Source: Escherichia phage A51.2
Strand: one strand, 5' to 3'
Length of the DNA: 64,000 bases
Sequence record: ON286973
Below, piece by piece: positions 2,995 to 61,015 of the stretch. Position 1 is the stretch's first letter. Each line of letters begins with the position of its first letter. A program made the position numbers and the translations under genes. The notes under the pieces are model-generated. The model saw only the letters and a list, made by a program, of their open reading frames with translations. It was not told where the DNA came from and searched no databases.

Positions 2995-3813
2995 TTGAGC
3001 AAGAAAGAGTCCAACGACAAATATTACACAAACCCTGAGTATGCAGAATATCTTGTTGGTAAAGTAAAAGATAAGTATGGAAATTGTGCATACGTTGAGC
3101 CTTCTGCTGGAAGGGGTTCTTTTTCAAAACTATTTTCAGAGATACTGTCTTACGATCTGGTACCAGATCCTGAATTTGAAGGACCAACACCGTGCATTCA
3201 GGCAAACTTCTTGGAGGTGCATCCCAAGGCAGATGTCTTCATAGGTAACCCACCATTTGGCAAGAATTCATCTTTAGCTTGCAAATTCTTTAACCATTGT
3301 GCATCATTGCTAGAGCTTGGAGGGGCTATAGCCTTCATCTTGCCACGGACATTTGAAAAAATATTTTTTGCAAACAAACTGGACATGTCTATGCACCTTG
3401 TCTACAGTGAAAGGTGCCCTAAGAACTCGTTTCTACTTAATGGCAAACCTTATGACGTGCCATGTGTTTTCCAAATTTGGGAGAAAAAGGCGTGCAACAG
3501 GGATCCTGTAGAGATTGGAGAGAATAAGTTATTTTCTTTTAGCACACCAGATGACTACGACTTCTGTGTAAGACGTGTTGGGTATAATGCTGGAAAAGTA
3601 TTGGGGGATGATGACCCAAAATCTGAAGAATCAACATATTTCATAAAATCTTTAGTTGACGGTGTTGACAGAGTGTTTGCTGAATGCTATTCTTCTTTTC
3701 AAGAAGAAGCAGGTAAGACTGCTGGAATGAAGAGTATAGGTAAGAAAGAACTACAATACATTTTGGAGACCAGGTATGATCAAAAGCATAGACTTGACCA
3801 AAGAACTTACTGA
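2995..3813 (+). CDS. DNA N6-adenine methyltransferase
   Basis: Motif I-like EPSAGRGSF and motif IV NPPF; probable TTG start after GGAGG (ORF-track start 2965 lies inside the terminator hairpin). Confidence 0.65.
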   Translation: MSKKESNDKYYTNPEYAEYLVGKVKDKYGNCAYVEPSAGRGSFSKLFSEILSYDLVPDPEFEGPTPCIQANFLEVHPKADVFIGNPPFGKNSSLACKFFNHCASLLELGGAIAFILPRTFEKIFFANKLDMSMHLVYSERCPKNSFLLNGKPYDVPCVFQIWEKKACNRDPVEIGENKLFSFSTPDDYDFCVRRVGYNAGKVLGDDDPKSEESTYFIKSLVDGVDRVFAECYSSFQEEAGKTAGMKSIGKKELQYILETRYDQKHRLDQRTY

Positions 3814-4234
3814 TGCAAAAGCTTTTGGTGAGACAGCGGTACAAAGGGGGCAGGCGATGGGACTGGCACTACCTTTCGTATTAAAAGAGCACTTTACAGA
3901 TTTTCAACTTATCAAGGGTGATAAGGGAATGCTTATCCTGGAGCATAAGTTGAGTAAGAAACGCTATAAAGTTGTTTTTAATTCTAAAGCTCCAACAAAA
4001 CTGGGATTCAGAACTTACAATCTTAACCCATCCTACACTAAGGGTGTTGGAAGGGTAGAACAACAGCATTTCAGTGCCAGAGCTTCTTTAGCCCCTTTGA
4101 TGCTAAATTTCTCAGGGGTGGCTTTAGGATACCTTGATAAGAAAAGAGTTCTTCATGTCCGTTTCACAGACTTTGTAACGCTTCTAGCCAACAACGAGGT
4201 TGATGAAAAGGGACGTGTAAAAACAAACTTCTAA
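3776..4234 (+). CDS. hypothetical protein
   Basis: 152-aa ORF, ATG after GGAGAC. Confidence 0.4.
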   Translation: MIKSIDLTKELTDAKAFGETAVQRGQAMGLALPFVLKEHFTDFQLIKGDKGMLILEHKLSKKRYKVVFNSKAPTKLGFRTYNLNPSYTKGVGRVEQQHFSARASLAPLMLNFSGVALGYLDKKRVLHVRFTDFVTLLANNEVDEKGRVKTNF

Positions 4235-4261
4235 TAACGCATAGTATGATTGGAGAACGCA

Positions 4262-4453
4262 ATGACACTAAAGTTAACAATTCCAGACAGCTTTTCAGAA
4301 GACTTTATCCCAGAAATGATGGATAAGATGCGATCATTGCTTGATCAGATCGAGGAAGCTGTTTGGGAAGACGATGCTGTAGTGGCTAACGAGCTGGTAG
4401 ATAAGTGTAAAAGTATTATTGATGCAGTTGAAGAATACCACGGAGGTTTTTGA
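4262..4453 (+). CDS. hypothetical small acidic protein
   Basis: ATG 4262; stop overlaps next start (TGATG). Confidence 0.35.
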   Translation: MTLKLTIPDSFSEDFIPEMMDKMRSLLDQIEEAVWEDDAVVANELVDKCKSIIDAVEEYHGGF

Positions 4454-5067
4454 TGGATATTATTGTTCTTAACGCCCCACCCAGCAGTGGTAAGGATCAC
4501 ATTGCAGATCTCTTGTTGGAAGCTATTCCTAACTCACACCACCGTGAGGTTAAGGAGATGCTCTTCAGTGTGGCAATTAAGGCAGCTGGTGTAACTCCTC
4601 AACTCTGGAATGCACTTTATGACCGCCACTACAAAGAAGAGCCTTGCCCTTTCTTAATGATAGACGGTAAGCATGTTTCTCCGCGAGAATGGATGATCCA
4701 TTGTAGTGAAAATCTGATTAAACCTATCTTTGGTGAAGATGCTTTCGGTAAAGCCGCAGTCGCATCTTTGAAGAAAGATTTCCCTAAAGGTAAAGGGGTT
4801 GTTGTTTACTCCGATGGTGGATTCAAAGAGGAGCTGGCATGCCTTAGCGAGTACGCGTACAGCACAGGTGGAGATCTGTTGTTGTTCCGTATTCACCGTG
4901 TCGGATATGACTGGGGAAATGATTCCAGAACCTATCTAAGTCTGGAAAAGAACGGAATAAAAGGAATTGAGTTCGATGTTGTAAACCCTGAAGGTGCACC
5001 TTGGGAATGTGCATCGGAGATTGTGTGCAAGTATATTGATGCTAAAGAGGCCCAAGAAGAATGTTAA
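4453..5067 (+). CDS. P-loop nucleotide kinase, dNMP kinase-like (T4 gp1-like)
   Basis: N-terminal Walker A LNAPPSSGKDHIADL resembles T4 deoxynucleoside monophosphate kinase. Confidence 0.5.
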   Translation: MDIIVLNAPPSSGKDHIADLLLEAIPNSHHREVKEMLFSVAIKAAGVTPQLWNALYDRHYKEEPCPFLMIDGKHVSPREWMIHCSENLIKPIFGEDAFGKAAVASLKKDFPKGKGVVVYSDGGFKEELACLSEYAYSTGGDLLLFRIHRVGYDWGNDSRTYLSLEKNGIKGIEFDVVNPEGAPWECASEIVCKYIDAKEAQEEC

Positions 5068-5654
5068 TCGGTATTGATGTAGATTTGACACTGGTAGATT
5101 CAGGAACAGCATGGTGGGAGTGGTTGGAGCGTTTATATGGTCCAGCCAGTAAGACAGTCACTAAACCCTCTAATGGGTTAATGTATTACGATCTGTCAAA
5201 GTATTGGCCTGATCGCCCCAAAGAAAACATCATAGGGCCTTTTGATTTCTGGAGTGACCCGTTCCTCTACGACTTTCTTAAGCCTGAAGATGGGGCTATT
5301 GAGGTTATGAAAGATTTGGTGGCTCGTGGTCACAAGCTTGCATTTATCTCGGTATGCAAGAAAGGTCACCTTGCATCTAAATCAAGGTTCTTAAAGCGTT
5401 GGACTAGTGATTTTATGGATCTGGACGATCACACCCAGGGTCACGGCTTCTACGCCACGCATTTCAAGGGAAATGTGGCTGTAGATGTTATAATTGACGA
5501 CAGGCATGAATACCTGAACCAATTCGCTTCACGCCCTGAAGTTATTAAAATCCTAAAAGATACGCCTTATGAGCAATTTGAGGAGTTAAAGGTCAGTGTT
5601 GACTATACCGCTAATAGCTGGTATAAAATAGGAAAGTTTTTAGAAGGTATTTGA
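5061..5654 (+). CDS. HAD-superfamily 5'(3')-deoxyribonucleotidase-like phosphatase
   Basis: HAD motif I IGIDVDLTLVDS (DxD) and late DD motif VIIDDRHE. Confidence 0.6.
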   Translation: MLIGIDVDLTLVDSGTAWWEWLERLYGPASKTVTKPSNGLMYYDLSKYWPDRPKENIIGPFDFWSDPFLYDFLKPEDGAIEVMKDLVARGHKLAFISVCKKGHLASKSRFLKRWTSDFMDLDDHTQGHGFYATHFKGNVAVDVIIDDRHEYLNQFASRPEVIKILKDTPYEQFEELKVSVDYTANSWYKIGKFLEGI

Positions 5655-5655
5655 A

Positions 5656-5856
5656 ATGGGCAGATGTTCTAAAGGTGGCGATCCTGTAGTCAGATACGGT
5701 GACTGGCTAGAGGTGTATGATCTGGGAGGTAAGCTGGTGTATGCCTCCAGGATCACCCAAGACATGTGCTCCGATATGTTCAACAGATACCTTGCATTTA
5801 AGGCCAACATAAACCCAGACGAAATTTCCAAAATTAAAACAAGGAGAGCTAAATAA
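5656..5856 (+). CDS. hypothetical protein
   Basis: 66-aa ORF between nucleotidase and ThyX-like gene. Confidence 0.35.
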   Translation: MGRCSKGGDPVVRYGDWLEVYDLGGKLVYASRITQDMCSDMFNRYLAFKANINPDEISKIKTRRAK

Positions 5857-6839
5857 TGCTAAAACTGTGCACTGCAAAGATCATTGCTGACAGCATTTCC
5901 GAGAAAGGTAAGCGCATCACCACTTTTGAGCTAGAGTATCCTCGAATTATTCACTCAGAGCTTATGACGCACCGAGTGTTCAGCCGAAACGCCATGTCTT
6001 CCCGTGCAGTGCCTGTCGGAAAGATGCTGCAACAGATTGTGGAGAATCCGGCAATGCCAGTTCGCTTCGGTGTAAATAAGCGAGGAATGGAAGATGGTGG
6101 GGAACACGATCAAAAGATCCGTGTAGAGTACACTGATATGGAGCTAACTCCGGAAGAGTTTTGGAAAGAAGCTGCAAAAAACGCCGCTTGGCATGCAGAG
6201 AAGTTTGCCCTTGCTGGTTACCATAAGCAAGTATGTAACCGCTTAGTGGAGCCTTTTCAGCGCATGAAAACAGTTGTAACAAGCACCGAGTGGAATAATT
6301 TTTTCCACCTCCGTTGCTGGCACGATGCGGATCCTACGATTCAGATGTTAGCTAATTGTATGTGGGAGGCTCTTGTGAATAGCACTCCTGAAATCCTTAA
6401 ACCGGGTCAATGGCACACTCCATATGTAGAGCACGTTTATTTGGACGGGGAGTTTAACTACGCTGTACGTGACACAGAAGGAAAGCTCTGCATTCTCGAT
6501 ACTAAAGAAGCTCTGTCTATCAGTGCTAGTTGCTGTGCACAAGTATCTTATCGAAATATTGACAGCACGTTTGAAAAGGCAGACAGTGTGGCTAAAAAAT
6601 TGATTGGTGGGGATCGTATTCATGCAAGCCCTTACGAGCACCAGGCAACACCTATGGATCACGATAACGCAATGGAACGTTTAAACTACTACCTGTCTTC
6701 ATGTGAAATCACACAAGACATCAGTACTTGGCAGGAAGGTGTAACCCATCAAGACCGTGATGGTAAATTCTGGTCTGCCAACTTTTGTGGGTGGGTTCAG
6801 CACAGACAACTGCTTAATAACCACTTCGTGAAAGGTTAA
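5856..6839 (+). CDS. thyX: ThyX-like (flavin-dependent thymidylate synthase family) protein, divergent signature
   Basis: RBS AAGGAGAG; THRVFSRNAMSSRA aligns to ThyX signature RHRxxSxNExSxRY with 3 consensus positions changed; 327 aa is longer than typical. Confidence 0.6.
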   Translation: MLKLCTAKIIADSISEKGKRITTFELEYPRIIHSELMTHRVFSRNAMSSRAVPVGKMLQQIVENPAMPVRFGVNKRGMEDGGEHDQKIRVEYTDMELTPEEFWKEAAKNAAWHAEKFALAGYHKQVCNRLVEPFQRMKTVVTSTEWNNFFHLRCWHDADPTIQMLANCMWEALVNSTPEILKPGQWHTPYVEHVYLDGEFNYAVRDTEGKLCILDTKEALSISASCCAQVSYRNIDSTFEKADSVAKKLIGGDRIHASPYEHQATPMDHDNAMERLNYYLSSCEITQDISTWQEGVTHQDRDGKFWSANFCGWVQHRQLLNNHFVKG

Positions 6840-6868
6840 TCCTATCACAGCGATAGGTAACTTTTGTG

Positions 6869-6897
6869 TTGACTAATAGTATTAGATAATCTATAAT
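6869..6897 (+). promoter_or_regulatory. sigma70-like promoter (TTGACT-17-TATAAT)
   Basis: Consensus hexamers with 17-bp spacer upstream of 6926 gene. Confidence 0.55.
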
Positions 6898-6925
6898 AAT
6901 GGCTCACTTTGTTGGTGAGCCAGAA

Positions 6926-7399
6926 ATGGAGACAGATATGAGTAATGTTATGATTCCTAAAAAGACATTTATTTCAGTTACTTTGGATTTCCTATCTACC
7001 GTTCCCGGGTTTAACGTTCGCACACGAAACGGTCTCCGAGCTGCACTCTTTGCCGTAGGGTTTGATTTAAAAAGTATTGATGTTCTTCGTGGAAAAAACG
7101 TTCGATGCAAAAATAAGCCAACACATTATCGAAAGGCAGATGTATTTGCTGGTGTCATGCGTGCAGACTTTAGATACCCGCAAATGTATAACGGTGTAGA
7201 TATTTTAGATGTGGATAAAGCACCTGGTGAGGCAATGCTTGTTCAAGATCTTCCGTATGATATTCCTGTAGAGGATCGTGTTAATGTAAGAAAGTATACA
7301 AAACAATCTGAAAAGGCTGAAGATATTCATATTGTTGATGAACCTTTCAATTTTGAAGATCTGCATCGCCTGGAAAAATTATTCGGTATTGAAAGCTAA
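6926..7399 (+). CDS. hypothetical protein
   Basis: ORF 6899..7399 trimmed to first ATG downstream of the promoter -10. Confidence 0.4.
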   Translation: METDMSNVMIPKKTFISVTLDFLSTVPGFNVRTRNGLRAALFAVGFDLKSIDVLRGKNVRCKNKPTHYRKADVFAGVMRADFRYPQMYNGVDILDVDKAPGEAMLVQDLPYDIPVEDRVNVRKYTKQSEKAEDIHIVDEPFNFEDLHRLEKLFGIES

Positions 7400-7409
7400 G
7401 GTGGTGAAG

Positions 7410-7640
7410 ATGAGTCATAACTCCAAGTGGAAGGATCTTGGTTTTGCAAGTCGGTCAGAGTATGTTGGTTGGCTTTGGTTCAACGGCCTGACAAACGATA
7501 TTAAAATGTATGATGATGTTTATTATGACGAGTATACAGGCAAAATTATAAATATCTCTGTAGAAGAGGATACCTTTATCCAGCAAGATACTGATACCTG
7601 CCTTGATAAATACGTTGATGAAGTGGAGGAAGCAAATTGA
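7410..7640 (+). CDS. hypothetical protein
   Basis: ATG 7410 after AAGGTGG; ORF-track 7332 start overlaps upstream gene. Confidence 0.4.
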   Translation: MSHNSKWKDLGFASRSEYVGWLWFNGLTNDIKMYDDVYYDEYTGKIINISVEEDTFIQQDTDTCLDKYVDEVEEAN

Positions 7641-9952
7641 TCACCAAGGTAATTAAAAGCAACGGATGTGAAGTGGCATTCGATCCAGAACGTTTAAATA
7701 AGGCAGCTATTTTCGGTGACGACGGTAACGGCAATTGGTCACATATTGCACTGGATGCATACAAACGACTGTATGATGGATGTACAACCAAAGAAGTTAA
7801 CCAAGCTATCATAGACTCCTGTGTTAGCCGTAAAGACGAAGCACATTCCCGTATGGCTGGTCGTGTTCTTATTGGTCAGATTTATAAAGAGGCTTTTGGA
7901 GGGTTTACAAAGATCCCTTCCTTACCATCATTTTACAACGACATGGTTGAGAAAGGGTATTGGGAGGATATGGGATATAGCTTTACCGAGCTAAACACTT
8001 TAGACGCTGTTATTGACCACAGTAAAGATCTCGGTTATGGCTATGCAGTCCTTAAACAGTTTCGCGACAAATACGGGATCAAGGATACTCTTAAAGACAC
8101 CTTGTTTGAATCTCCCCAGATGATGTTTATGGGGATAGCAATGGCTGTCATGAAGAATATGCCGAAAGAACGTCGTATCAACGATGTTGTAAAATTATAC
8201 ACTTATCTGTCCGACTTAAAGATCAATGCCCCGACACCGTACTTAAACGGGCTGCGCACAGGTAAGACAGGGTATGCATCTTGTTGTGTAATAAAAGCTG
8301 ACGATACAGCAAAATCTATTGGTGTGGCACGTGAAGTTGCGTACACAATGACGGTTAACCAAGCAGGTATCGGCTACTATTTATCATCAAGATCTGCAGG
8401 TGATGGTGTTCGCGGTAACACTATTAAACACATGGGTAAGATTCCATATTATCGAGGTATTGATGCTGGTGTTAAGGAGAACAGACAACAATCACGTGGC
8501 GGTTCTGCAACAGTATCATTCCTTGCACTGGACCCGCAGATTGATGAGCTAATCCGTTTGAGAAACCCTATGACTGTTGCTTCAAAAAGAATCAACACCA
8601 TGGACTACTCCATCGGTATTAATAGGTCGTTTATCAACCGTGTGGCTAAGAATTTAGATTGGATGCTTGTTTCTTATAAGCACGCTCCTCAACTGCATGA
8701 GGGTATCTTCACCATGTCTATGGAGGAGTTCGATGCAGAGGTTGAGCGTATTGCTAAAGATGACAGTATTCCTAAGACATGGATCCGGGCTAGAGATCTT
8801 GCTGTTGAGCTGATCACGCAGCGTACTGAGGTGGGAAGGCTGTACGTATACTGGACAGATGAGATGAATAGACATACACCTTTTAAAGATGTGATCTATT
8901 CAAGCAACCTGTGTGCAGAAATAGCCCTCCCGACAAAAGGCTATTCAGATATGCGTAATATCTTCAAGTACGATGTTGATGATGGTGAGGTTGCATTGTG
9001 CTTCCTGTCATCTCTTGTAGCTGGAAGGGTTACCCCAGAGGAGTATGAGGATGTTGCATACTACACGGTACTTATGATTGACAATGTTATGGAAATCATG
9101 ACATATCCGTATGAAAACATGGAGAGTACTGTTAAAAAACGCAGATCCATCGGGGTTGGCCTTACCAATGTTGCACATTTTATTGCCAGCCACAAGGTTA
9201 CTTACGGATCTCCTGAAAGTAAACAGCTTGTTCACGATCTTGCAGAACTTCACAGCTACAGCTTGCATAAGGCAAGTTTACGGTTGGCAAAAGAGCGTGG
9301 TGTCTGCGAGTGGATGTATAAAACAAAATATCCAGAAGGTTGGTTACCAATCGACACTTATAACAAAGAGGTCGATAGTGTGGTGAAAGATCCTTCTCTT
9401 AAACAGGATTGGGAAGGGTTACGTAAAGAAATCATTGAAAATGGTGGGCTACGTAATAGCGTTCTTGAAGCATATATGCCTAATGAAAGCTCTTCGCTGG
9501 CAACAAACACCACTAACGGGGTTTATCCTGTCCGTGAGCACATTATCTTTAAAAAGTCGCCACAAGGGCAGGTGCTGTTTATCGTTCCTGAATACGATGA
9601 GTTGAAAGAGTATTACACTTCGGCTTGGGACGTTGATACTAACGACATGATCGATATGTATGCTGTGATTCAAAAATTCACAGGTCAGGCAATCAGCGCG
9701 GATTTATACATAGACTACACCAAGTTGAAAGATGGTAAAATTTCAATGAAGGAGCAGCTAGGGTACCTTATCCGTGCCACTAAATTCGGGATGAAGACAT
9801 GGTATTATTTAAACTCTAGGGTTGGTGCTGGTGACTCCTTGGCAGAGGAACTTCATGCCAAGAAACAGGCTGAAGATGAAACCAGAAAGAACTATCCTTT
9901 GATTGCAGATAGTTCAGTTGAAGATCCGTATTGCGAAAGCTGTGCACTATAA
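7637..9952 (+). CDS. nrdA: ribonucleotide reductase class Ia large subunit
   Basis: N-terminal ATP-cone (VIKSNG..E.F), catalytic NLCAEIALP motif, 771 aa; TTG start after GGAGGA. Confidence 0.9.
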   Translation: MITKVIKSNGCEVAFDPERLNKAAIFGDDGNGNWSHIALDAYKRLYDGCTTKEVNQAIIDSCVSRKDEAHSRMAGRVLIGQIYKEAFGGFTKIPSLPSFYNDMVEKGYWEDMGYSFTELNTLDAVIDHSKDLGYGYAVLKQFRDKYGIKDTLKDTLFESPQMMFMGIAMAVMKNMPKERRINDVVKLYTYLSDLKINAPTPYLNGLRTGKTGYASCCVIKADDTAKSIGVAREVAYTMTVNQAGIGYYLSSRSAGDGVRGNTIKHMGKIPYYRGIDAGVKENRQQSRGGSATVSFLALDPQIDELIRLRNPMTVASKRINTMDYSIGINRSFINRVAKNLDWMLVSYKHAPQLHEGIFTMSMEEFDAEVERIAKDDSIPKTWIRARDLAVELITQRTEVGRLYVYWTDEMNRHTPFKDVIYSSNLCAEIALPTKGYSDMRNIFKYDVDDGEVALCFLSSLVAGRVTPEEYEDVAYYTVLMIDNVMEIMTYPYENMESTVKKRRSIGVGLTNVAHFIASHKVTYGSPESKQLVHDLAELHSYSLHKASLRLAKERGVCEWMYKTKYPEGWLPIDTYNKEVDSVVKDPSLKQDWEGLRKEIIENGGLRNSVLEAYMPNESSSLATNTTNGVYPVREHIIFKKSPQGQVLFIVPEYDELKEYYTSAWDVDTNDMIDMYAVIQKFTGQAISADLYIDYTKLKDGKISMKEQLGYLIRATKFGMKTWYYLNSRVGAGDSLAEELHAKKQAEDETRKNYPLIADSSVEDPYCESCAL

Positions 9953-9959
9953 TTTTAAA

Positions 9960-9978
9960 GGGGCTTCGGCCCCATTTT
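9960..9978 (+). terminator. hairpin GGGGC-TTCG-GCCCC plus T tract between nrdA and nrdB (terminator/attenuator)
   Basis: Perfect stem with TTCG loop followed by ATTTT, 8 nt after nrdA stop. Confidence 0.5.
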
Positions 9979-9990
9979 AGAGGTAGAATA

Positions 9991-11079
9991 ATGGCTGTAT
10001 TTAATGCTGAGAACACCGCTCATAAAACTGGTGACTATCCGCTGTTTCTGGGACAGCAAATGGGTATGTACGACTCTATCAACAAAAAATATCCACAACT
10101 GTTTGAACTATACAAAAAACAAAAAGAGCAAGATTGGGCAGAGGATGAAGTGGATTTGTCGCAATCTATTTCAGATTTTGTAACATGCTCAAAGTCAACT
10201 TATGACGTGATGGTGCAGACCTTGATGTGGCAATGGGAGGCTGATAGCGTTGCGGCAAGATCGATCATCTGCCTCTTTTCACCATTCATCACTAATAGTG
10301 AGCTTTTCACTCTATTGATGAAACAGTCAGAGATTGAAGTTCTTCACGCACTAACTTACTCAGAGATTGTTAGACAATGCCTCCCCAATGCCCGTGAGAT
10401 TATAGAAGAGATTCAGGAAAACCAAAACGTTCTGAGCAGATCCGGCGTTATTGTCAAATACATGCAAGAGCTTGAGGTTATTGGTGCAAAATACCGCCTG
10501 GATCCTTCTAGTGTTGAAGAAGATATTGTGCGGAAATGCATTCTTAGAGCGCTTTTTGCGCTTTTAGCTCTGGAAAGTATTGAGTTTATTGCAAGTTTTG
10601 CATGCACTTTCGCAGTAGCTGAACAGGGTATCTTTGTTCAGGTGGCGCAGCTTGTTCAAAAAATCATGCTTGACGAAATGCTACATTCGAAAGGTGATTT
10701 TGCCATCATTGATATCTTGCTTAATGATCCCGCATGGGAGAAAAGCTTCCTTGAGATAAAGGGGGAGTTAAAAGAGATTCTTGATGAAGTACGAACCAAA
10801 GAGTACGGTTGGAGTGACTATATTTTCAGCGAAGGAAGAGCGATTATAGGTCTTAACTCACCGTTGCTTAAAGAGTGGGTTGACTATAACTGCTCACCGA
10901 TTTATGATTACTACGACATCGACAAAGACTTTGTGCCGCCAACAAAGGACCCGCTACCGTTTATGCAGGTGTGGATGAAACCTTCATTACAACAGACGGC
11001 GAACCAAGAAATGTCGAACACTGACTACCGCGTCAACACAACTGTTAACGACGCTGAAGAAGAAATTTGGGAGTTTTAA
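9991..11079 (+). CDS. nrdB: ribonucleotide reductase class Ia small subunit
   Basis: Iron-ligand region EVLHALTYSEIV and FACTFA; ATG 9991 downstream of the hairpin (ORF-track start 9931 runs through it). Confidence 0.85.
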   Translation: MAVFNAENTAHKTGDYPLFLGQQMGMYDSINKKYPQLFELYKKQKEQDWAEDEVDLSQSISDFVTCSKSTYDVMVQTLMWQWEADSVAARSIICLFSPFITNSELFTLLMKQSEIEVLHALTYSEIVRQCLPNAREIIEEIQENQNVLSRSGVIVKYMQELEVIGAKYRLDPSSVEEDIVRKCILRALFALLALESIEFIASFACTFAVAEQGIFVQVAQLVQKIMLDEMLHSKGDFAIIDILLNDPAWEKSFLEIKGELKEILDEVRTKEYGWSDYIFSEGRAIIGLNSPLLKEWVDYNCSPIYDYYDIDKDFVPPTKDPLPFMQVWMKPSLQQTANQEMSNTDYRVNTTVNDAEEEIWEF

Positions 11080-11082
11080 TAT

Positions 11083-11361
11083 ATGAGCTGCGAAAAATCT
11101 TTTTTCATCATCATTTACGGTAAGGATAACTGCCCACATTGTGTCAGAGCAAAAGAATTTGCAATCAGCAAAGGTCTGCCTTTTGTATATAAGACACTTG
11201 GCGAGGGCTACACAAAAGAAGAGCTTATTGAGAAGTGCAGTCCAATTGTCCCCAGAACGTTGCCGCAGATCTTCTTAGAAAGCGATCTTGACAGTGTCCA
11301 TATAGGCGGTGCCGACGATTTCATCTCTTTTGTTAAGAATGGTTTTGGAGAGAAAAAGTGA
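11083..11361 (+). CDS. glutaredoxin/NrdH-like redoxin
   Basis: 92 aa with CPHC active-site motif, between nrdB and nrdD. Confidence 0.65.
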   Translation: MSCEKSFFIIIYGKDNCPHCVRAKEFAISKGLPFVYKTLGEGYTKEELIEKCSPIVPRTLPQIFLESDLDSVHIGGADDFISFVKNGFGEKK

Positions 11362-13496: not shown

Positions 13497-13506
13497 GGAA
13501 AGAGGT

Positions 13507-13537: not shown

Positions 13538-13544
13538 GTTTTTA

Positions 13545-15571: not shown

Positions 15572-15574
15572 TCG

Positions 15575-21445: not shown

Positions 21446-21447
21446 CG

Positions 21448-52711: not shown

Positions 52712-52760
52712 AAAAGTCTCCTCTTTGCTCAACAGCACCTCCCTGTGCTGATAGTTTACA

Positions 52761-55538
52761 TTAGTGACAATCACCCCAGTTACGACCGCACAAGTATTCA
52801 CCTGTGATCTGGAATGGAACGCCCATCATTTTAGAAGCTTGCCAGAAGCAATGCACCACCATTTCACCCACAGGGCTCCAGATAAGTTCAAGCTTTCCGT
52901 CATCGTTCAGGATAGGATCGTACACCGTGTTTCCGTCTCTGTCAACCACTTCGTTTCCGTTTTCATCCTTGCGTGCCTTTTTGTACTTATGACCGTCGAA
53001 CACATGAAGTTTGGCTTCCTGCTCTGCCTTAAATGCTTCCAATTCTTCAATTGTGTCGAAGGTGTACACAGTCTTATACTTAGGTGTGTCAGGGACCTGA
53101 AGTTGGTACTCATCATGGTAATAAATAATACGACGGACACCTTCATCGTACCACCCACGCTTCACCATTTGGTGGTGCATGAGTATCCCAACTAAGTCAC
53201 ACAGCGATGCACCACCATTTTGTTGGTATGCATTAAGTAAAGAGTGTTTAGATCGGGTCCAGATAGCATGACCATCAAAAGAGTAGATAAACTTCTTACC
53301 TGTTGCTTCCCAGAATTTCTCCAGATCCTCTTTGCGCCCCTTAAGACCGGGGTTGGCATCCCAAAGTGCATCGATCACCCTTTGCCCCAACTCTGGGGAG
53401 ATATCCAGCATATCTGCGACTTTATCTTTTTGTGCCCCGTACATAACCCCATACGTGATAGGTTTACCGTCGTTACGAGACACCTCTCTGCCTGCTACTT
53501 TTGTATATGCCTCAGCATTGTTTTGGTGTGCGTCTCCGTTACTTACAACATCATAGTACAAGCCGTTGTCGAACTCAAAGGCACCCCAAGCCCCGATAAG
53601 CTGCTCTAAGTTGGACCCGTCAATACCGATCTCAAAATATCCAGGAGGAACACCCCACAAGCTACGCATCTCTTTACCCATAACCACTTTAGGAGATGGT
53701 TTAGGCATGTTTGCACAAATACTGTGTTTCTGTCGGGAAGTGTTTGTTAATCCAGAGCTTTTAGCAGGAAGCTTATGGTCAATCTTCAAACGTGGGTGAT
53801 TAAGAAGACCAGTATCAACCTTATCCTCCTTGATTGGATCAAGGACCGATCTGCGGTTTCGCAATGATAACCACAAGACGATATCTTTAGCCATCTCTCC
53901 GTTCAATTTTTCAAGATTCGGACATAGGTGTCCAAACGTATCTTTCAGTTGCGGAGAAGTAATAAGTGCCCTGGCTTTTCTGCGTATTTTCCCGAACACT
54001 TCCTTTTTAATCCTTTCGGAGTTAGGAAAGCTTCGGAACTTGTGCACTGTTGTCTGAAACTTAGCATCAGTTTTGTTCCAGAAGTTGATAATTAGGTCAC
54101 AATACTCTGACTCTAAAAGCTCGTCCATGTATGCATATACTCGTGCATCAACATCTGCATCAGGTAGAGCTTTCTTCTTGCTGTCCTTAGTTACATCCTT
54201 AGTTCTCCACATTGTCGGAAGCCAACCAGCACTGATCAGGTATCGCTTAATGTCGTCCTGATTGCTGATTTTCATAGGTATCTTGCAGTCAGGCATTCGC
54301 TTCTGCTGCAGATCACTTATTGCCTGATCCATCAGCTCTTTAGGTAAAGGTTGTGGTGTGGAGGTGCCCTTAATATAACCTCTCAAGAAATCAGCCATCT
54401 TGTCGGGGTCTTTGCAGCCCATCTCTTCGCACCATTTTATCCCCATCTTGCTGACATCTCCTGTGGAGGTAAATGCTCGCTTAGGCGGGGCTTTGAATTC
54501 TAAGGCGCTCATGTCTACAGGATAGCCAAGCTTATCTTTTAACCATTTCCAACCATTATTGGAGATTGTCCCATCTTGGTTAAACGGCTTTTCAGGGAAC
54601 TTGGGCCGCTGAGACATTGACAACTCTTTTAAAGGAAGTTGAGGTTCAACACGATCAGCGATCTCTTTCATCCACGCATCGCAACGGTCACGTAAAGCAA
54701 TAGCCCCATCTATGTCGAAATACACACCCTGACGGGCCTGCAGCTCCATCAGGAAGTGCTGCAGCATGCCTCGGCGTAATGCGTTCTTCCAGGTGATTTT
54801 CTTGAACCCTTTCGGCTTCTCTTTGGCTGGATCGTACATAAAGTTCTGCATGTCAGATTTGCCGTAGAATACACCTTTTGATTCCGCTATCAGCTCTTTC
54901 CAGAGCAGCTCCTGGATGATAACGTCCTCGAATACACGATCCACATACTTCCACAACGGAAGATCGCGCCAGTCATCAATTTGAACTTTCTGGTTACCAA
55001 GGGCGTAGCCCCATGCCATAAGGCCGTGAGGACCAACAGGCTGCATTTTCTTAGTAACCGGGTTGAATACAGAGTCCGGACAACCTTTTGGTAAAGGGCG
55101 ATCAGGCCACAAGATTCTGCTCATCGCCAACGTATCAAACAGGTTAACCTGGTGGTCGTTGATAGTCCCCATGCATTTAGGATCACGGAACATATCAAAA
55201 TGAATACCGGATAATCTTTCCATCAGCATAAAGTCATAACTGTAGCAGTTATGGCAGTTCAAAGCTGTTGGTGACCAGTCGGAATTGCCTGTAAGCCAAC
55301 CTTCCAACTCCGAAAAATCTGCTATGCGAACTTCAAAATCTTTATGAAGAGTTTTCTTTGCCAGAATAAAGTTCTTAGCCTTCTCTATATCCTCTTCGGA
55401 GTAGTGTGTGCGGTCATTTAGAGGAAGGAACAGCATAAAACGGTTCTTATTCAGCTCTTTAAACAGGCCGCAGTGATAATAAAGATCTGGATCTTCCAGC
55501 AAACCGGATGACTCAAAGTCGAACGACCACATGCTCAT
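52761..55538 (-). CDS. DNA polymerase, family A, with 3'-5' exonuclease domain
   Basis: 925 aa; exo motif FDFESSG; Pol motif A-like DGSNLEQLIGAW, motif B-like KPITYGVMYGAQ, motif C YYHDEYQ. Confidence 0.85.
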   Translation of the reverse strand: MSMWSFDFESSGLLEDPDLYYHCGLFKELNKNRFMLFLPLNDRTHYSEEDIEKAKNFILAKKTLHKDFEVRIADFSELEGWLTGNSDWSPTALNCHNCYSYDFMLMERLSGIHFDMFRDPKCMGTINDHQVNLFDTLAMSRILWPDRPLPKGCPDSVFNPVTKKMQPVGPHGLMAWGYALGNQKVQIDDWRDLPLWKYVDRVFEDVIIQELLWKELIAESKGVFYGKSDMQNFMYDPAKEKPKGFKKITWKNALRRGMLQHFLMELQARQGVYFDIDGAIALRDRCDAWMKEIADRVEPQLPLKELSMSQRPKFPEKPFNQDGTISNNGWKWLKDKLGYPVDMSALEFKAPPKRAFTSTGDVSKMGIKWCEEMGCKDPDKMADFLRGYIKGTSTPQPLPKELMDQAISDLQQKRMPDCKIPMKISNQDDIKRYLISAGWLPTMWRTKDVTKDSKKKALPDADVDARVYAYMDELLESEYCDLIINFWNKTDAKFQTTVHKFRSFPNSERIKKEVFGKIRRKARALITSPQLKDTFGHLCPNLEKLNGEMAKDIVLWLSLRNRRSVLDPIKEDKVDTGLLNHPRLKIDHKLPAKSSGLTNTSRQKHSICANMPKPSPKVVMGKEMRSLWGVPPGYFEIGIDGSNLEQLIGAWGAFEFDNGLYYDVVSNGDAHQNNAEAYTKVAGREVSRNDGKPITYGVMYGAQKDKVADMLDISPELGQRVIDALWDANPGLKGRKEDLEKFWEATGKKFIYSFDGHAIWTRSKHSLLNAYQQNGGASLCDLVGILMHHQMVKRGWYDEGVRRIIYYHDEYQLQVPDTPKYKTVYTFDTIEELEAFKAEQEAKLHVFDGHKYKKARKDENGNEVVDRDGNTVYDPILNDDGKLELIWSPVGEMVVHCFWQASKMMGVPFQITGEYLCGRNWGDCH

Positions 55539-55596
55539 ATACAGTTCTCCTTAAAGGGGAGGCGGTTGTACTACCCCTCCCACTCTTTGTTAAACA

Positions 55597-57675
55597 TTAA
55601 AAAGGTGTTTCATCATCCTCAAAACCAGGGACCGGATCAGAGGATGGATCATCGTATTGGAGGTCTTCCTGCGTGTCAATAGGCTTGACAGTGGGTGTTA
55701 CAACCTTATCAGCCACAACCTTGCCCATAGGTGTTTCTACAACTGCATGCTCTTGATCCTCAAACATAGCCTGAGGTCTCCAAACAACCTCCCCACCTTC
55801 TCCGTCTGTAAACATCTGCATTTCTTTGTCCCAGTACCAATTACTGGCATCATGGAACTTACCTGTATGCGGATCCATAACTAAAGTGTCAGCAATACCT
55901 AAAGTTTTTGCTGGACGGTTTTTAAGACCTACCAGACGGACACGTCCACGAGAACGATCCACCATTTCTTCGGCCTCGACACCTATGACTACCCAACTCA
56001 ACTGTTCAAGCCCAGCCGATCCTCGCAAATTCTCTTTTCGCACAGGATACCAGAAAGGTAATGGGTTACCATCCTTGTCCTTAGGGGGCACAATCTCTGT
56101 ACGTTTGAGGTGAGCGATCACCAAGATAAACACGTTAAACTGCTTACAAAACGCAGCCAGTTGGGTCATAGCCATGTCCAGTTCTTTTCGCTCATCCTTA
56201 ACATTAAGCCCTGAAATTACCATGGACAGGTGATCCAGCACAATATAACGGCAATGGTACAGGCAAACCATTTGCTTAAGCTTGGTAATCAACTCGTCCA
56301 CCGGAATAGATCCGAAATGTTTGAACACTTTGATTTTTCCAGCTTTTGCCCATGATTGGTGGATCTCTGCGTGTTCTTGATCAGTTAAAAACTGGCTAGG
56401 ATCTTCAACAAACTCTTTAACATCAAACCCTAACTGGTTTGCATACAAGGAGTTAATTGCTTCCTCTGGGTCCTCCTCAAGATGGATCATACATAGACGA
56501 TCATCCTCTTCATAGTCATCAGCCTTCGGGCATGTCGGGTCCATTAGGTATCTTGCAATACAATGTTCCAGTTTTTTAGCTACAGTTGTTTTACCGCCCC
56601 CTGATGGCCCTGTAAGCATTACGAGTGTCCCTTTGTGCAAGCCTTTTAGCATTTTTTGCAGTTTTGGGAACTCTGCGCTGATATCTACCCCGTTGGAAGT
56701 CTTTTTCCGCAAAGACTCGATAGAGAAGTCTTCTAAATCCGACACAGCATCAGGCACATATTTAACAGGGTGCCGGAACATGTTGACAATATCTTCCAGC
56801 TTTTTAGCCTTCAGCATGTCACGGATATCTTTTACCCCGTCAGGGTCATTTACTTCACCAGGGTATTCTACGTGGTAAACGTTATCAGCCATCAAAAATG
56901 CTGCGATATTGTGCGTGGCCTCAACACCTTTAATGACGTGTTTTTGCTTCTCTACCTCGTTAGCTGCATCGTTATCCATTGCCAGCACAACTGTTCCATA
57001 GCTACGGATAAACTTCTCATTGTTTGCAAAAGTATCTACTGCGTTTGCACATCCACAGTTAATTCCAACAAAAGGCAGGCAGGGTTTTCCTGCCAGATCA
57101 CCACCGTTGATAACTGCGTCGATCCCGTCCTGGACCTCTTTAGCCCACTGCTTCACCTTTGCCGGGGCTTTAGCGTTGGTGAGAATCCCTTTTACTTGTA
57201 TCTGATATGCAGCCTGCCATGCTGCAATAACATCACCTTCTCCCTCACAAACGTTAATCTGCTTACGGTTGTTGGAAGATGCACACAGCTTTTGACCAAA
57301 CATCTGGGAGTTGGCCTTTACGATGCCAACAACGGAGAAGTGGCCCCTTTGTTCTTTAGGAATAGTCCAGTCACGCTTTTTGAAACCGGACAGATTTCCG
57401 TAGCGGTCGTAATATGGGAAATATGTTGCAGTGACTGTCACACCGTCTTCTTGTGACAATGCTGATCGCACACCAAAATATTGTGCAGCCATCAGACCGA
57501 TATTTTGTTGTGGGACAGGGACAATTTTAGTATTTTCTAAAACAGTCTCTACAGTTTCAACTTCTTTTTCATCACGATAGTCTCGTTTCACACTTCCCCC
57601 ACTTTTATACTTAGTTGCTTTCGGGTTTGGCTCACCGAAACGGTTGTATGCAGATGCCATAAATTTACTTCCCAT
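55597..57675 (-). CDS. bifunctional primase-helicase (T7 gp4-like: TOPRIM plus DnaB-type helicase)
   Basis: TOPRIM-like EGEGD and DNDAANE; Walker A LTGPSGGGKTT; Walker B IVLDHL. Confidence 0.8.
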   Translation of the reverse strand: MGSKFMASAYNRFGEPNPKATKYKSGGSVKRDYRDEKEVETVETVLENTKIVPVPQQNIGLMAAQYFGVRSALSQEDGVTVTATYFPYYDRYGNLSGFKKRDWTIPKEQRGHFSVVGIVKANSQMFGQKLCASSNNRKQINVCEGEGDVIAAWQAAYQIQVKGILTNAKAPAKVKQWAKEVQDGIDAVINGGDLAGKPCLPFVGINCGCANAVDTFANNEKFIRSYGTVVLAMDNDAANEVEKQKHVIKGVEATHNIAAFLMADNVYHVEYPGEVNDPDGVKDIRDMLKAKKLEDIVNMFRHPVKYVPDAVSDLEDFSIESLRKKTSNGVDISAEFPKLQKMLKGLHKGTLVMLTGPSGGGKTTVAKKLEHCIARYLMDPTCPKADDYEEDDRLCMIHLEEDPEEAINSLYANQLGFDVKEFVEDPSQFLTDQEHAEIHQSWAKAGKIKVFKHFGSIPVDELITKLKQMVCLYHCRYIVLDHLSMVISGLNVKDERKELDMAMTQLAAFCKQFNVFILVIAHLKRTEIVPPKDKDGNPLPFWYPVRKENLRGSAGLEQLSWVVIGVEAEEMVDRSRGRVRLVGLKNRPAKTLGIADTLVMDPHTGKFHDASNWYWDKEMQMFTDGEGGEVVWRPQAMFEDQEHAVVETPMGKVVADKVVTPTVKPIDTQEDLQYDDPSSDPVPGFEDDETPF

Positions 57676-58459
57676 TAATTCTGCTCCTTACTACAGGCTC
57701 GTTTGCTAGGAATACGGCTTTTGCCCAGCCACGTGGTGTGAGGCTTCGAATCATCTTCGTTCTTGCACTCTTTCCACCCAGCTTGGCGTGTTGCATGGAA
57801 TACCCGCTAACCGCGTCAACTATTTGCGGGACAGGTTTTGTGGCTGGGATTATAAATCCATTACCTATCCAGCCGCAAGTTATTTTTGGATAGGCATCAC
57901 GTGGAGCTATAAATTCAGGAAACCATGGGTTTACATCATCTTCCGGTAAATACCCGCCATAATCCGAAGGGTGAAAACGGTAATCAGGTTTGCGCCACAG
58001 TGTGGACATAACACCCACAGGATTCTCTACATGCCACGGGCAATCGTAAATCTCTCCCAGCTCTTCCGCAACCCGAGCATCCTTTACAGCATTAATTTGG
58101 ATCATGGGGTCCTTAGCCAGTTTTTTCTTAAAATGTGCAGCACCTGATACCGCTAAATGCGTGCACGGAGGAAATGCAAGAATAAAATCTGGAGCCGGAT
58201 ACATGCAAAAAGTTTCCTGAGGGAACCACGGGTCAATCCAATAGTCCACATAGTGAATGTTGGGATGATCGGTGATCACCTCTGCATAACTGCCGTGATC
58301 AGCGCCTTCTGCATTAAAGCACAGGCACAGGTACCCAGCTTTTGCCCAGTCAATGACTGCACCACCAGACCCGTCAAATAGACTCCACACAACACCTTTG
58401 TGGTAGTGTTCTTTGTAGATAAATTTCAATTTACTGTCTCCTAATGCAAAAAGCCCCAC
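57665..58459 (-). CDS. minimal C5-cytosine methyltransferase-like protein
   Basis: 264 aa with motif I LFDGSGG, motif IV FPPC, motif VI-like VENP in canonical order; no obvious target-recognition domain. Confidence 0.5.
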   Translation of the reverse strand: MGLFALGDSKLKFIYKEHYHKGVVWSLFDGSGGAVIDWAKAGYLCLCFNAEGADHGSYAEVITDHPNIHYVDYWIDPWFPQETFCMYPAPDFILAFPPCTHLAVSGAAHFKKKLAKDPMIQINAVKDARVAEELGEIYDCPWHVENPVGVMSTLWRKPDYRFHPSDYGGYLPEDDVNPWFPEFIAPRDAYPKITCGWIGNGFIIPATKPVPQIVDAVSGYSMQHAKLGGKSARTKMIRSLTPRGWAKAVFLANEPVVRSRINGK

Positions 58460-58480
58460 CCTTTCGGGCAGGGCCTAGTG

Positions 58481-58963
58481 TTAAACCCGGATACCTATTG
58501 TATACTCGGTGGATACCAATGTCAAATCTAAATTTAAAATTTCTTGCATCTCATAATATGCGTCCAGGGTTAGATACATTTCCCCATCCTTTTCTGCATA
58601 CTTGTCCAAGTGCTTAAGGCATTTCGGATAACTATCGAGTGCAGCTTTCAGACACTCAAATTCTGTGCTGTTAATGAATCCTTCCATCTTAGCTACCCGT
58701 TCTGGAGTAACGATAGCACTGTAGTGAGATTTAGCTTCCTGAATGCAATGGGTCCAAGCATCAACTTTCTCTTCGAAAAGCCCGAAGAACTTCTTTTTGG
58801 TGAGCTTCAGATTCTTTAAGTGCTTAAGCACTCGGTTGCCGATCACAGCCACATCACGAAACTTAAGGATCACTTTGTCGATATCCTCGCGGCCTATTTT
58901 CACAAAGCAAGCCTCGCACATTTCAGGAGTGGCATAGCCTACTTTCCACATAAAATCTGACAT
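58481..58963 (-). CDS. hypothetical protein
   Basis: 160-aa ORF. Confidence 0.45.
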   Translation of the reverse strand: MSDFMWKVGYATPEMCEACFVKIGREDIDKVILKFRDVAVIGNRVLKHLKNLKLTKKKFFGLFEEKVDAWTHCIQEAKSHYSAIVTPERVAKMEGFINSTEFECLKAALDSYPKCLKHLDKYAEKDGEMYLTLDAYYEMQEILNLDLTLVSTEYTIGIRV

Positions 58964-58975
58964 AACACCCTCTCC

Positions 58976-59371
58976 TTATTCCTGAAAAGCAACGATATCA
59001 TATGAACTTGCAGATGATCCTGGTGAAGAATGACTCCAGTCTAGGTCATCAGAGTAGTCAGCGTACTGTGCACCACTACGTAGTTTGTATTTTACCCACT
59101 TACCTGGTGCAGGGTTTTCACCACCTTCCCATACTTCCCAGCCTTCTGGCAGGCCGTCCTGGGGGTAGTCATCCACCTCACTAATAATCTTAGGGTTTGG
59201 CACCAAGATCCCTGCAGGCTCTTCCTTCCTGATAAGTGTCCACACAGCGTAGGTGTCTGAGCAGGCGCATGATAGCAAAGTATATCCACTATTCAGAACT
59301 TCTGCAAGCTCTTTCTCAGCATCTTCCAACTTGGTTAAGTGGTATTGGACAATCTTCACATCTGTAATCAT
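58976..59371 (-). CDS. hypothetical protein
   Basis: 131-aa ORF. Confidence 0.45.
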   Translation of the reverse strand: MITDVKIVQYHLTKLEDAEKELAEVLNSGYTLLSCACSDTYAVWTLIRKEEPAGILVPNPKIISEVDDYPQDGLPEGWEVWEGGENPAPGKWVKYKLRSGAQYADYSDDLDWSHSSPGSSASSYDIVAFQE

Positions 59372-59715
59372 CAGAAACCTCCCACTTCTTCGGCAAATGC
59401 AGCTGCTGTCGTCGCTGCATCAAGATAGGACTCTAGTTCACGGGCTGCACGTTTGTAAATTGAGTGGCGCATATCGTTTGGCAGTTTGTGGAAGTCCACC
59501 TCTTCACCGTTGTGGTAAGCATGCACATCAGTGATCTGTCTAAATCCATAATAGTCAACATCAGAATCACGACACTCTGGGTCTGGCAACTGGACAACTG
59601 CCTGAGCTTCCACAGTGAACATATCGTCAAGTTCAAAATCGATTTCAAAAGTGTATGGTTTATAACGTTTCATCATTTGATTGTACTCTTTATTGATCAG
59701 ACTTATCTTTCGCAA
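59371..59715 (-). CDS. hypothetical protein
   Basis: 114-aa ORF. Confidence 0.45.
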   Translation of the reverse strand: MRKISLINKEYNQMMKRYKPYTFEIDFELDDMFTVEAQAVVQLPDPECRDSDVDYYGFRQITDVHAYHNGEEVDFHKLPNDMRHSIYKRAARELESYLDAATTAAAFAEEVGGF

Positions 59716-61015
59716 CTAAGGCCGGGGCAAGTTTGTAATAACGGAAGCCACCACCACCTTGCCAGTTTACAGACTTAGAAATACCACCTTGATCTTCGCC
59801 ATCGATCACTTTTTCCAAGCGCGGAATAATATGGGTATGACAATGATCACCTAGCTCGATTGAGATCCAGCGTCTTTTCATCTTATGAGCTACAGCAGCA
59901 GTAGTTCCCGAACCACCGAATGAATCCAATACCAAATCGCCTTCTCGCGTGCACATTTCGAAAATCCGCTTCAAAAGCGCTTCTGGTTTTTTCCCATTTT
60001 TGAAACTAACGCCGCCTTCATTTGCTATTCCATTCCAACTAATGTCTGTCCAAACATCAGTTATTAGTTCCGCAGGTTGCATCTCACCGTCAATTTCCAA
60101 AAGCCTATTGGAGTAAAAGACCATTTGCCTACCATTTGCGATATAAAATCCTTCAACATCCTCATTTGGATGTACATAAACCTTATCCCTATCTTTCTTT
60201 GACTTCTCGATAGTTTCTTTTCTCTTTATTTTAGCACCACCACCAATTGCAACAGATTGAAATACACGTTCTGCATTATCAATTGCGAATTGTGCTAATT
60301 CATCATCGAATGTATCAGGCAGTTTTTTCTTGGCTTCTTTTGCATCTTTATAGCCATTGGCCTTTGCAAACGCATCGGCAATACCGCACCACGTCCAATT
60401 TTTATAATGGTCATCCGGGTTTAATAGGTATTTGTTATATCCTGTATCATACCCTTTAGGTATATAGATTTTGTTAAGCGGTTTCTGGGTGCGATCTTTT
60501 GCATATACAAGCAAAAAGTTTGCTGTGGAGAAAACTGTGGCTCCTGTTGCCTTAAATCCCGAAGGGGAATTTGTGGTCATCGATATAGTATTTAACTGAT
60601 TTGCACGACCAAAAATCTCGTCCATCAAAACTTTTAAATACGCCATTTCGCAATCATCTAAGTGAACGAATATTACCCCATCATCACTTAGAAGATTACG
60701 AATTATTTCTAACCTATCCCTCATTAAGCCCAGCCAAATGGAATGCTCCAGGCTATCATCGTAATGCTCAAAAGCCCTCCCGGTATTGAATGGTGGGTCT
60801 ATGTAAACACACTTCACTTTGCCTGCATACTCTTGCTCTAGCGCCTTCAATGCTAATAAGTTATCTCCAAAAATCAGTTTATTATCAAAAATATCGTTTT
60901 CGGTCACTTTCTGGCTGTGGTAAGATTTGCTAGAATCTTCTAACAAAATGTGTGGCTCTAACTTTTTGCGCTCGTTTTTACCTATCCAGGTAAGTTCTAA
61001 TTTGGTTTTGCTCAT
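59690..61015 (-). CDS. beta-class DNA methyltransferase (N6-adenine or N4-cytosine; Type III Mod-like)
   Basis: N-terminal LTWIGKNE, motif IV DPPF, C-terminal motif I DSFGGSGTT. Confidence 0.75.
   Translation of the reverse strand: MSKTKLELTWIGKNERKKLEPHILLEDSSKSYHSQKVTENDIFDNKLIFGDNLLALKALEQEYAGKVKCVYIDPPFNTGRAFEHYDDSLEHSIWLGLMRDRLEIIRNLLSDDGVIFVHLDDCEMAYLKVLMDEIFGRANQLNTISMTTNSPSGFKATGATVFSTANFLLVYAKDRTQKPLNKIYIPKGYDTGYNKYLLNPDDHYKNWTWCGIADAFAKANGYKDAKEAKKKLPDTFDDELAQFAIDNAERVFQSVAIGGGAKIKRKETIEKSKKDRDKVYVHPNEDVEGFYIANGRQMVFYSNRLLEIDGEMQPAELITDVWTDISWNGIANEGGVSFKNGKKPEALLKRIFEMCTREGDLVLDSFGGSGTTAAVAHKMKRRWISIELGDHCHTHIIPRLEKVIDGEDQGGISKSVNWQGGGGFRYYKLAPALVAKDKSDQ

Follow-up and report, generated by a model that had tools for sequence, protein, structure and literature searches.

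What are four DNA methyltransferase (MTase) genes doing in one phage, and do they serve a common purpose? The question is raised by a 64,000-nucleotide (nt) stretch of Escherichia phage A51.2 (record ON286973), the window analysed here, which encodes a gamma-class adenine MTase (A), a small adenine MTase (B), a putative C5-cytosine MTase (C), and a predicted beta-class MTase that resembles the Mod subunit found in restriction-modification (R-M) systems of type III (D) (Table 1). A first-pass annotation had noted four MTase open reading frames (ORFs) with catalytic motifs and without a neighboring restriction endonuclease, and we find all four in place with those motifs. PADLOC detects no restriction endonuclease among the ORFs next to A, C, and D, and B is flanked, from annotation alone, by a ClpP-like protease and a small hypothetical gene. 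We consider it likely that these are four unrelated solitary enzymes from four lineages, each setting one narrow mark, and that D is a captured type III mod gene.

By megablast, the window belongs to a Vequintavirus, an rV5-like Escherichia coli myovirus. It shares 99.1% identity with Escherichia phage inoa over positions 1-20000 and 98-99% with APECc02, WalterGehring, and inoa over positions 52000-64000, and 111 phage records each cover at least 80% of the latter stretch. Window position 1 corresponds approximately to inoa position 39002, and gene order is shared. WalterGehring is the BASEL phage Bas51 (MZ501111), whose MTases match ours at 441/441 residues for D, 254/254 for C, 176/177 for B, and 271/272 for A. 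The four-MTase observation was confirmed but was already known through existing annotation, which names all four as methyltransferases in both inoa (inoa_54, _77, _167, and _171) and Bas51 (bas51_0200, _0176, _0074, and _0070), and about 87-120 phage records contain protein homologues at least 90% identical to the MTases. It is common for a phage genome to have several orphan methylases. About 16-21 GenBank records (MG0656xx) labeled "Campylobacter phage", with host C. jejuni, match this E. coli Vequintavirus at 97-98% identity and encode the same MTases; their host labels look doubtful.

Curated models recognize the four enzymes unevenly. D is the only one to pass a Pfam threshold; A and B have sub-threshold matches, C has none, and A, B, and C reach a cut-off in neither Pfam nor NCBIfam. 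In PHROGs, B, C, and D fall into "DNA methyltransferase" families, and A falls into an unnamed one and has a methylase as a secondary match. Sequence searches of the PDB return no match for A, C, or the ThyX-like protein encoded elsewhere in the window. Searches for E. coli counterparts found none for A or B, and for C only 188 nt at 69% identity, leaving D alone among the four as a recent host capture.

For D, we could identify both the donor locus and the insertion junctions, along with a domain-precise loss and a natural polymorphism in which some phages have the gene and others lack it. The sequence comparison shows D to be a type III mod gene that passed from host to phage very recently and that appears to have lost precisely its Res-binding domain. 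A blastn search of 5,426 complete E. coli genomes matched the D gene in 24 chromosomes at 95.2% nucleotide identity over 1318 of 1326 nt (94-95% overall). In strain 2014C-3011, the match is the 5' three-quarters of the gene for a 568-amino-acid (aa) "site-specific DNA-methyltransferase" (WP_024226319.1), with which D shares 424 of 439 residues (97%), the whole central recognition region included. This mod gene is directly followed by one for a 912-aa DEAD/DEAH helicase (Res, WP_024226320.1); in PADLOC, the first is called as a type III methylase (7e-285) and the second as a restriction enzyme of the same type (9e-191). The pair lies in a defense island adjoining tRNA-Sec, together with a MAD1-like helix-turn-helix gene, a DrmD-like SNF2 helicase (964 aa), and AbiD, and this island, its Mod and Res proteins identical, is found in three isolates, one each from a patient in the US, a broiler in China, and cattle in Japan. 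The island (NZ_CP027591.1, 5059170-5076490) also contains integrase remnants and an ArdA pseudogene, and one strain has an AIPR protein there as well.

The homology between phage and host DNA extends from window position 61028, 13 nt upstream of the start codon, to position 59681, shortly after the phage stop. Among 116 related phage records, 85 have the D segment and about 30 (about a quarter) lack it cleanly, such as MaxTheCat/Bas57, LL12, I29, and Mangalyan. MaxTheCat and LL12 align to window positions 63000-61012 and 59678-58200, and the limits of this insertion or deletion coincide with the limits of the E. coli-derived segment; at the junctions, there are a few bases of microhomology around ATG start codons. 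The insertion lies between a promoter-like site with a hairpin (Table 1) and the start codon of the next phage gene, and the same site and hairpin precede that gene in D-lacking phages. Promoter-like sites are not in excess in the scanned region, with 11 compared to 9.0 +/- 3.0 in shuffled controls. Relative to the host mod, the phage gene has an 11-nt deletion just after codon 440, which shifts the frame to a TAA stop at codon 442, and the homology ends about 20 nt past this deletion. These features would fit a Vequintavirus ancestor having inserted a piece of an E. coli type III mod gene between two phage genes. We found no paper reporting Mod capture in Vequintaviruses.

The truncation falls at a domain boundary. 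In D, the DPPF motif at 73-76 lies N-terminal to FGGSG at 365-369, which is the beta-class order, and the protein matches PF01555 at 4e-42 and the PADLOC MTase_III model PDLC03636 at 1.5e-205 over profile positions 2-444 of 575. Its best PDB relatives are the type III Mod subunits 6k0w and 4zcf. In EcoP15I Mod, the catalytic domain ends at residue 516 and the C-terminal domain (539-644) makes the main Res contacts; the N-terminal and the catalytic domains hold the two protomers together, and Mod2 can methylate on its own, acting on one strand of an asymmetric site (PMC4490356). In alignment, D ends near EcoP15I Mod residue 521, and the host Mod runs 127 residues further. D therefore shares with type III Mod subunits (EcoP15I Mod, PDB 4zcf; EcoP1I Mod; PDB 6k0w) the order of DPPF, target-recognition domain, and FxGxG, as well as the N-terminal dimerization region and PF01555, but it differs from them in having neither a Res gene nor the C-terminal domain to which Res docks. 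No Res gene was found beside D, where the neighbors are small ORFs (function unknown) and a PIF1/RecD-like superfamily 1 helicase; the helicase was considered as a Res and rejected on its PIF1/RecD-like family. By analogy with EcoP15I, D appears to retain the parts for dimerizing, site recognition, and methylation and to have lost the nuclease-recruiting part. Since the Res-binding domain alone is gone, D is predicted to dimerize and to methylate the site of the donor system on phage DNA without recruiting the nuclease.

The pattern of substitution points to strong purifying selection on D within the phage lineage. The ratio of nonsynonymous to synonymous divergence (dN/dS, Nei-Gojobori) is 0.078 when phage and host are compared; for four phage alleles, whose divergence reaches a dS of 0.34, it is 0.06-0.16, and no internal stops were found in the phage alleles examined. 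That D is instead a decaying, functionless remnant of horizontal transfer is barely credible: its truncation relative to the donor and its absence from about 30 of 116 records would suit a remnant, but these low ratios, the lack of internal stops, the intact catalytic motifs, and the placement of the truncation at a domain boundary speak against decay and suggest that the captured enzyme is functional.

Bas51 ties the window to direct experimental data, namely N6-methyladenine (m6A) at GATC and GTAC on virion DNA and B as a retron trigger. Bas51 escapes the retrons Asa1 and Squ1 via D69G, D79G, or T83P in an N6 adenine methyltransferase that is toxic when expressed alone (PMC12548924). Since only the 177-aa protein, among three Bas51 proteins annotated as adenine methylases, has D69, D79, and T83 together, we take bas51_0176 to be this published enzyme. 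It differs from B by a conservative change near the C-terminus (A174 in Bas51, V174 here). The expectation that virion DNA would carry methylated motifs holds for m6A: native nanopore sequencing of Bas51, in which 6mA was the only base modification called, gave 1405 GATC, 509 GTAC, and 576 other adenines in the wild type (WT), compared to 35 GATC, 511 GTAC, and 349 other adenines in the T83P mutant (PMC12548924). The window contains 355 GATC and 128 GTAC sites, which scale to about 1560 GATC and 560 GTAC adenines on the two strands of 140.7 kb, and dividing the published counts by these scaled densities gives about 90% methylation of both in Bas51 virions.

Together, these findings indicate, by way of a protein that differs in one residue, that B is the GATC adenine methylase, which would methylate GATC essentially to completion, and that it is also a liability in triggering retron abortive-infection systems. 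GTAC methylation, on the other hand, is independent of B, with 511 sites retained in T83P compared to 509. If the propagation host was dam+, host Dam would add almost nothing to phage DNA methylation, with only 35 GATC left in T83P. None of the other three is as widely conserved as B, which tblastn matches in 543 phage records, in some of them distantly or in part. It shares m6A at GATC with E. coli Dam and the phage T1-type Dam family but stands outside those sequence families (PF05869, 19.2 bits with a cut-off of 28.1; TIGR01712, 16.1 with a cut-off of 97; PF02086, no match) and, at 177 aa, has no separate recognition domain. With bas51_0176, it would share both the GATC specificity and the retron liability. 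Near B, a 174-aa ORF (20258-20782, + strand) is identical to bas51_0171 ("putative glycosidase") and has no Pfam match; a premature stop at R87 in bas51_0171 abolishes defense by retron Asa1 and leaves Squ1 defense unaffected (PMC12548924).

Which enzyme, then, makes the GTAC mark? We know of no GTAC methylase in E. coli K-12, and since the mark is also independent of B, it should be made by A or D. In A, motif I (EPSAGRGSF) lies N-terminal to motif IV (NPPF) and a C-terminal recognition region follows motif IV, which is the layout of a gamma-class type II enzyme. Residues E34-P35-S36, G38, G40, F42, and G83-N84-P85-P86-F87-G88 (numbered from residue 2 of the 272-aa protein) are invariant among 50 sequences. 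The PADLOC type II MTase model PDLC03255 is matched by A along its whole length (3e-34), and A falls below the cut-offs of the curated models Eco57I (15.5 bits, cut-off 25.3) and MTS (13.7, cut-off 23), with no NCBIfam match; most of its 792 database relatives are unnamed. A scan that took one genome for each bacterial species gave 80 cellular loci of this family, many of them in Alphaproteobacteria such as Sphingomonas. In 17 of the 80, a gene for a protein of about 215 aa starts within a few bases of the methylase stop on the same strand, and 14 of 15 such partners match the PADLOC REase_II model PDLC03460 (best 5e-15). The partner family has no Pfam, NCBIfam, or PDB sequence match and has a PD-(D/E)xK-like rather than a PabI-like fold; the genomic contexts of three individual A homologues were uninformative. 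Since a restriction endonuclease-like gene directly follows these cellular homologues, we infer that A descends from a type II R-M methylase family and is solitary in the phage.

When the loci with the endonuclease were compared to those without it, GTAC showed the largest drop in observed/expected frequency (O/E) of 16 four-base palindromes (0.75 compared to 0.94). M.HpyAXII, a known GTAC m6A enzyme, is of the gamma class with its motif IV Asn at position 87, and A is likewise gamma class with its catalytic Asn at 85. M.PabI, M.CviQI, and M.HpyAXII all make GTm6AC and are mutually very divergent, and A is likened to M.HpyAXII by its class and the position of its catalytic Asn; the PD-(D/E)xK-like partner nuclease of the A family is unlike the PabI-like fold. 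Altogether, we provisionally assign GTm6AC on virion DNA to A, which is its probable source and the likeliest maker among the four. It seems unlikely that D makes this mark and that A acts on a site in the "other" class or is inactive. Both are adenine methylases with intact catalytic motifs, and beta-class enzymes can act on palindromes. However, D is 97% identical to a Res-paired type III Mod across its whole target-recognition domain, and EcoP15I Mod2 methylates an asymmetric site; the A family pairs with type II endonucleases, and it is there that GTAC is selectively depleted. Moreover, the 349 residual "other" sites in T83P are close to what a 5-bp, one-strand site would give (2 x 140,659 / 1024, roughly 275).

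MTase C had been labeled "C5-cytosine MTase-like", and its motifs and predicted fold uphold that label. Its longest ORF spans 57665-58459 with a GTG start at 58459, while homologues and two GenBank annotations use the ATG at 58429. The protein has the motifs FDGSGG, FPPC, and ENP; among 47 homologues, P87-P88-C89 (catalytic Cys89) and E135-N136-P137 are invariant and F18, G20, S21, and G22 nearly so. Its 3549 relatives are mostly from phages and prophages, and a few are named C5-cytosine methylase. C itself has no Pfam, NCBIfam, or PADLOC match, PF00145 included, while two relatives at 55-56% identity pass PF00145 (24.7 and 25.4 bits compared to a threshold of 22). An AlphaFold2 model has a mean predicted local distance difference test score (pLDDT) of 90.9 and a predicted template modeling score (pTM) of 0.90, and its top 38 Foldseek matches in the PDB are DNMT3A/3B catalytic domains (probability 1.0, best E 2.9e-7, TM about 0.5), with 3g7u, an MTase of prophage CP-933R, coming next. 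C is therefore predicted to be a C5-cytosine MTase that shares with PF00145 members, DNMT3A/3B, and 3g7u the FxGxG, PC, and ENV-type motifs and the fold, but it is much shorter, with a minimal recognition region, and lies below detection by the Pfam model.

The recognition sites GAATTC, GATATC, and AGACC of the restriction enzymes tested on related phages contain neither GATC nor GTAC. In raw published BASEL plating efficiencies for phages with these MTases, Bas51 reached 0.56 on EcoKI, 1e-4 on EcoRI, and 0.056 on EcoCFT_II and gave no plaques on EcoRV. The D-containing phages MaxBurger and JeffSchatz plated at 3e-4 to 2e-3 on EcoRI, and EcoRV and the type III system EcoCFT_II left them essentially without plaques. 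On EcoPI their efficiency was about 1e-3 to 6e-3, except that one JeffSchatz replicate had no plaques. Bas54 and Bas55 gave no plaques on EcoCFT_II (BASEL). Since the tested sites lack GATC and GTAC, these data fit narrow, motif-specific protection, and we conclude that the MTases would give narrow, site-specific protection and do not give general resistance. Carrying several methylases is thus not the same as being generally resistant to restriction. The literature that we searched contained no methylome or restriction data specific to rV5.

The first-pass annotation had read the four MTases, together with the ThyX-like enzyme, a dNMP kinase, and a nucleotidase, as a heavy investment in modification against restriction. 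What stands of this reading is that the phage DNA is methylated, as the Bas51 m6A data show, and that D plausibly serves to counter one host restriction system in particular; what falls is broad protection. A general modification programme could draw on the presence of four MTase genes with no cognate endonuclease, on the nearly full methylation of two motifs in sister-phage virion DNA, and on the under-representation of GTAC and CTAG in the window. On the other hand, the BASEL study calls Vequintavirinae exceptionally susceptible to R-M systems, and phages with the same MTases are restricted to between 1e-3 and below 1e-6 by EcoRI, EcoRV, EcoCFT_II, and EcoPI. The ThyX-like protein, moreover, keeps its thymidylate-synthase signature and sits in a ribonucleotide reductase block, and nothing indicates non-canonical bases. 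A general programme is very improbable and is already largely refuted by the published plating data.

Under the reading that we prefer, that of four solitary enzymes with one narrow mark each, every MTase would add its mark as the phage DNA is replicated, and together they would block certain endonucleases, those recognizing GATC, GTAC, the type III site, or a 5-methylcytosine site. D would protect specifically against hosts that carry the donor type III system, and the sensing of B by retrons would be the cost. Several points weigh against this reading. B mutants plate as the WT on retron-free hosts (PMC12548924), so B is not essential in the laboratory, and neither is D, to judge from natural D-lacking phages, with about 27% of Vequintaviruses doing without it. 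The GTAC palindrome signal behind the assignment of A is weak, with z about -3 before correcting for 16 tests, and site specificity need not persist at 35-45% identity.

An alternative is that the MTases mainly serve the phage's own DNA transactions, for example by holding GATC in the fully methylated state so that MutH does not nick the rapidly replicating DNA, or as marks for packaging, replication, or late transcription. B makes almost all GATC methylation and is the most widely conserved of the set, A, B, and C lie among replication and nucleotide-metabolism genes, and Dam is known to mark DNA for P1 packaging. Against such a role stand the normal plating of B-null mutants on retron-free hosts, the origin of D in a defense system and its polymorphism, like that of an accessory gene, and the membership of cellular A homologues in R-M pairs. 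We therefore regard an own-DNA role as possible but doubtful. It is quite unlikely that D works as a decoy, forming Mod dimers without the C-terminal domain, alone or with host Mod, that would occupy sites without Res and act as a dominant-negative anti-restriction factor. The idea comes from D being 97% identical to host Mod with its dimerization surfaces kept and the Res-docking domain gone; if true, the decoy would act on incoming DNA before methylation is complete.

That D is a methylase taken from host R-M for self-methylation would place it in a well-known kind. Phage orphan methylases taken from host R-M include T2/T4 Dam, P1 Dam, and the multispecific C5 methylases of the Bacillus phages SPbeta and phi3T, which likewise are solitary and nuclease-free and methylate their own DNA at the sites of host endonucleases. 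Unlike these cases, here four enzymes of four classes share one genome, and D has an identifiable donor (94-95% nucleotide identity), insertion boundaries that are exact, and a truncation that is domain-precise. The BASEL collection already includes isogenic-like phages with and without D, and the D system could show how phages disarm a restriction system with its own methylase.

Table 1. Position and supporting evidence of the MTase genes and associated features in the window.
Feature	Position	Strand	Basis
MTase A: solitary gamma-class N6-adenine DNA MTase, 272 aa, TTG start	2995..3813	+	motifs, PADLOC
152-aa ORF, annotated as MTase in some GenBank records; overlaps 3' end of MTase A by 38 nt in another frame	3776..4234	+	none
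dNMP kinase-like	4450-5067	+	phrog_139 dNMP kinase, 9e-45
NT5C-type nucleotidase	5061-5654	+	PF06941 NT5C, 8e-6, above threshold
Small ORF	5656-5856	+	
ThyX-like thymidylate synthase, 327 aa	5856-6839	+	PF02511 Thy1, 3e-9, above threshold; phrog_85
MTase B: N6-adenine MTase, 177 aa	18496..19029	+	NPPY at 84-87; phrog_799, 8e-67
MTase C: compact C5-cytosine DNA MTase, 254 aa, predicted	57665..58429	-	motifs, fold
Insertion carrying MTase D, 1,333 nt	59679..61011	-	alignment of D-lacking phages
MTase D: type III Mod-like beta-class N6-adenine MTase, 441 aa, predicted	59690..61015	-	PF01555, PADLOC
Promoter-like site (TTGACT-17-TAAGAT) and GC-rich hairpin upstream of MTase D	61043..61099	-	consensus scan, pattern match

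The nucleotide-metabolism genes grouped with the MTases in the first-pass annotation look like standard dNTP supply, with ribonucleotide reductase genes directly 3' of the 4450-6839 block. The ThyX-like protein carries the signature THRVFSRNAMSSRA, which fits HRxxSxxxxSxR, and scores 37.4 bits against PF02511 (cut-off 24.8) over profile positions 60-190 only; against TIGR02170, its 40 bits are below the cut-off of 87.9. Since EcoRI and EcoRV cut in vivo and nanopore base-calling is normal, there is no sign of hypermodified bases.

The 152-aa ORF that overlaps A was considered as a fifth MTase and rejected, with no Pfam, NCBIfam, or PADLOC match and only phrog_9938 (function unknown). It was also considered as the missing part of a split gene, for which there was nothing beyond a weak similarity (26% over 97 aa, pairwise E 1e-5): its N-terminal part resembles an extension at the N-terminus of P0140, one MTase A homologue of 395 aa. 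This homologue comes from a 1.4-kb metagenome contig whose called gene did not translate exactly to the query. The similarity hints at some link in function.

Across the whole window, the most depleted four-base palindromes are CTAG (O/E 0.47) and GTAC (O/E 0.67), and the EcoP15I site is strand-skewed, with 7 CAGCAG (O/E 0.41) compared to 22 CTGCTG (O/E 1.0). This depletion and skew may be a trace of past selection by GTAC-reading and type III enzymes.

Just 3' of the anaerobic ribonucleotide reductase gene, a 310-aa gene (13612-14544, + strand) has DUF723, CapR, treble-clef zinc-finger, and T5orf172 domains and belongs to the phrog_681 endonucleases; its product is probably a homing endonuclease. 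The Bas51 annotation joins the nrdD gene, and likewise the DNA polymerase gene, across insertions of homing endonucleases, which the window does not have. No tRNA genes were found in the window. A stretch of about 2.3 kb (about 30,980-33,240) has no annotated gene and lies at a switch of coding strand and of GC skew; it has no Rfam match and no tRNA. Direct and inverted repeats cluster within it, especially at 32,230-32,750, and include an 18-nt perfect inverted repeat with copies 116 nt apart, a 20-nt exact direct repeat with copies 274 nt apart, and GGCAACTAT-type repeats in both orientations. This stretch could be a replication origin or a regulatory region.

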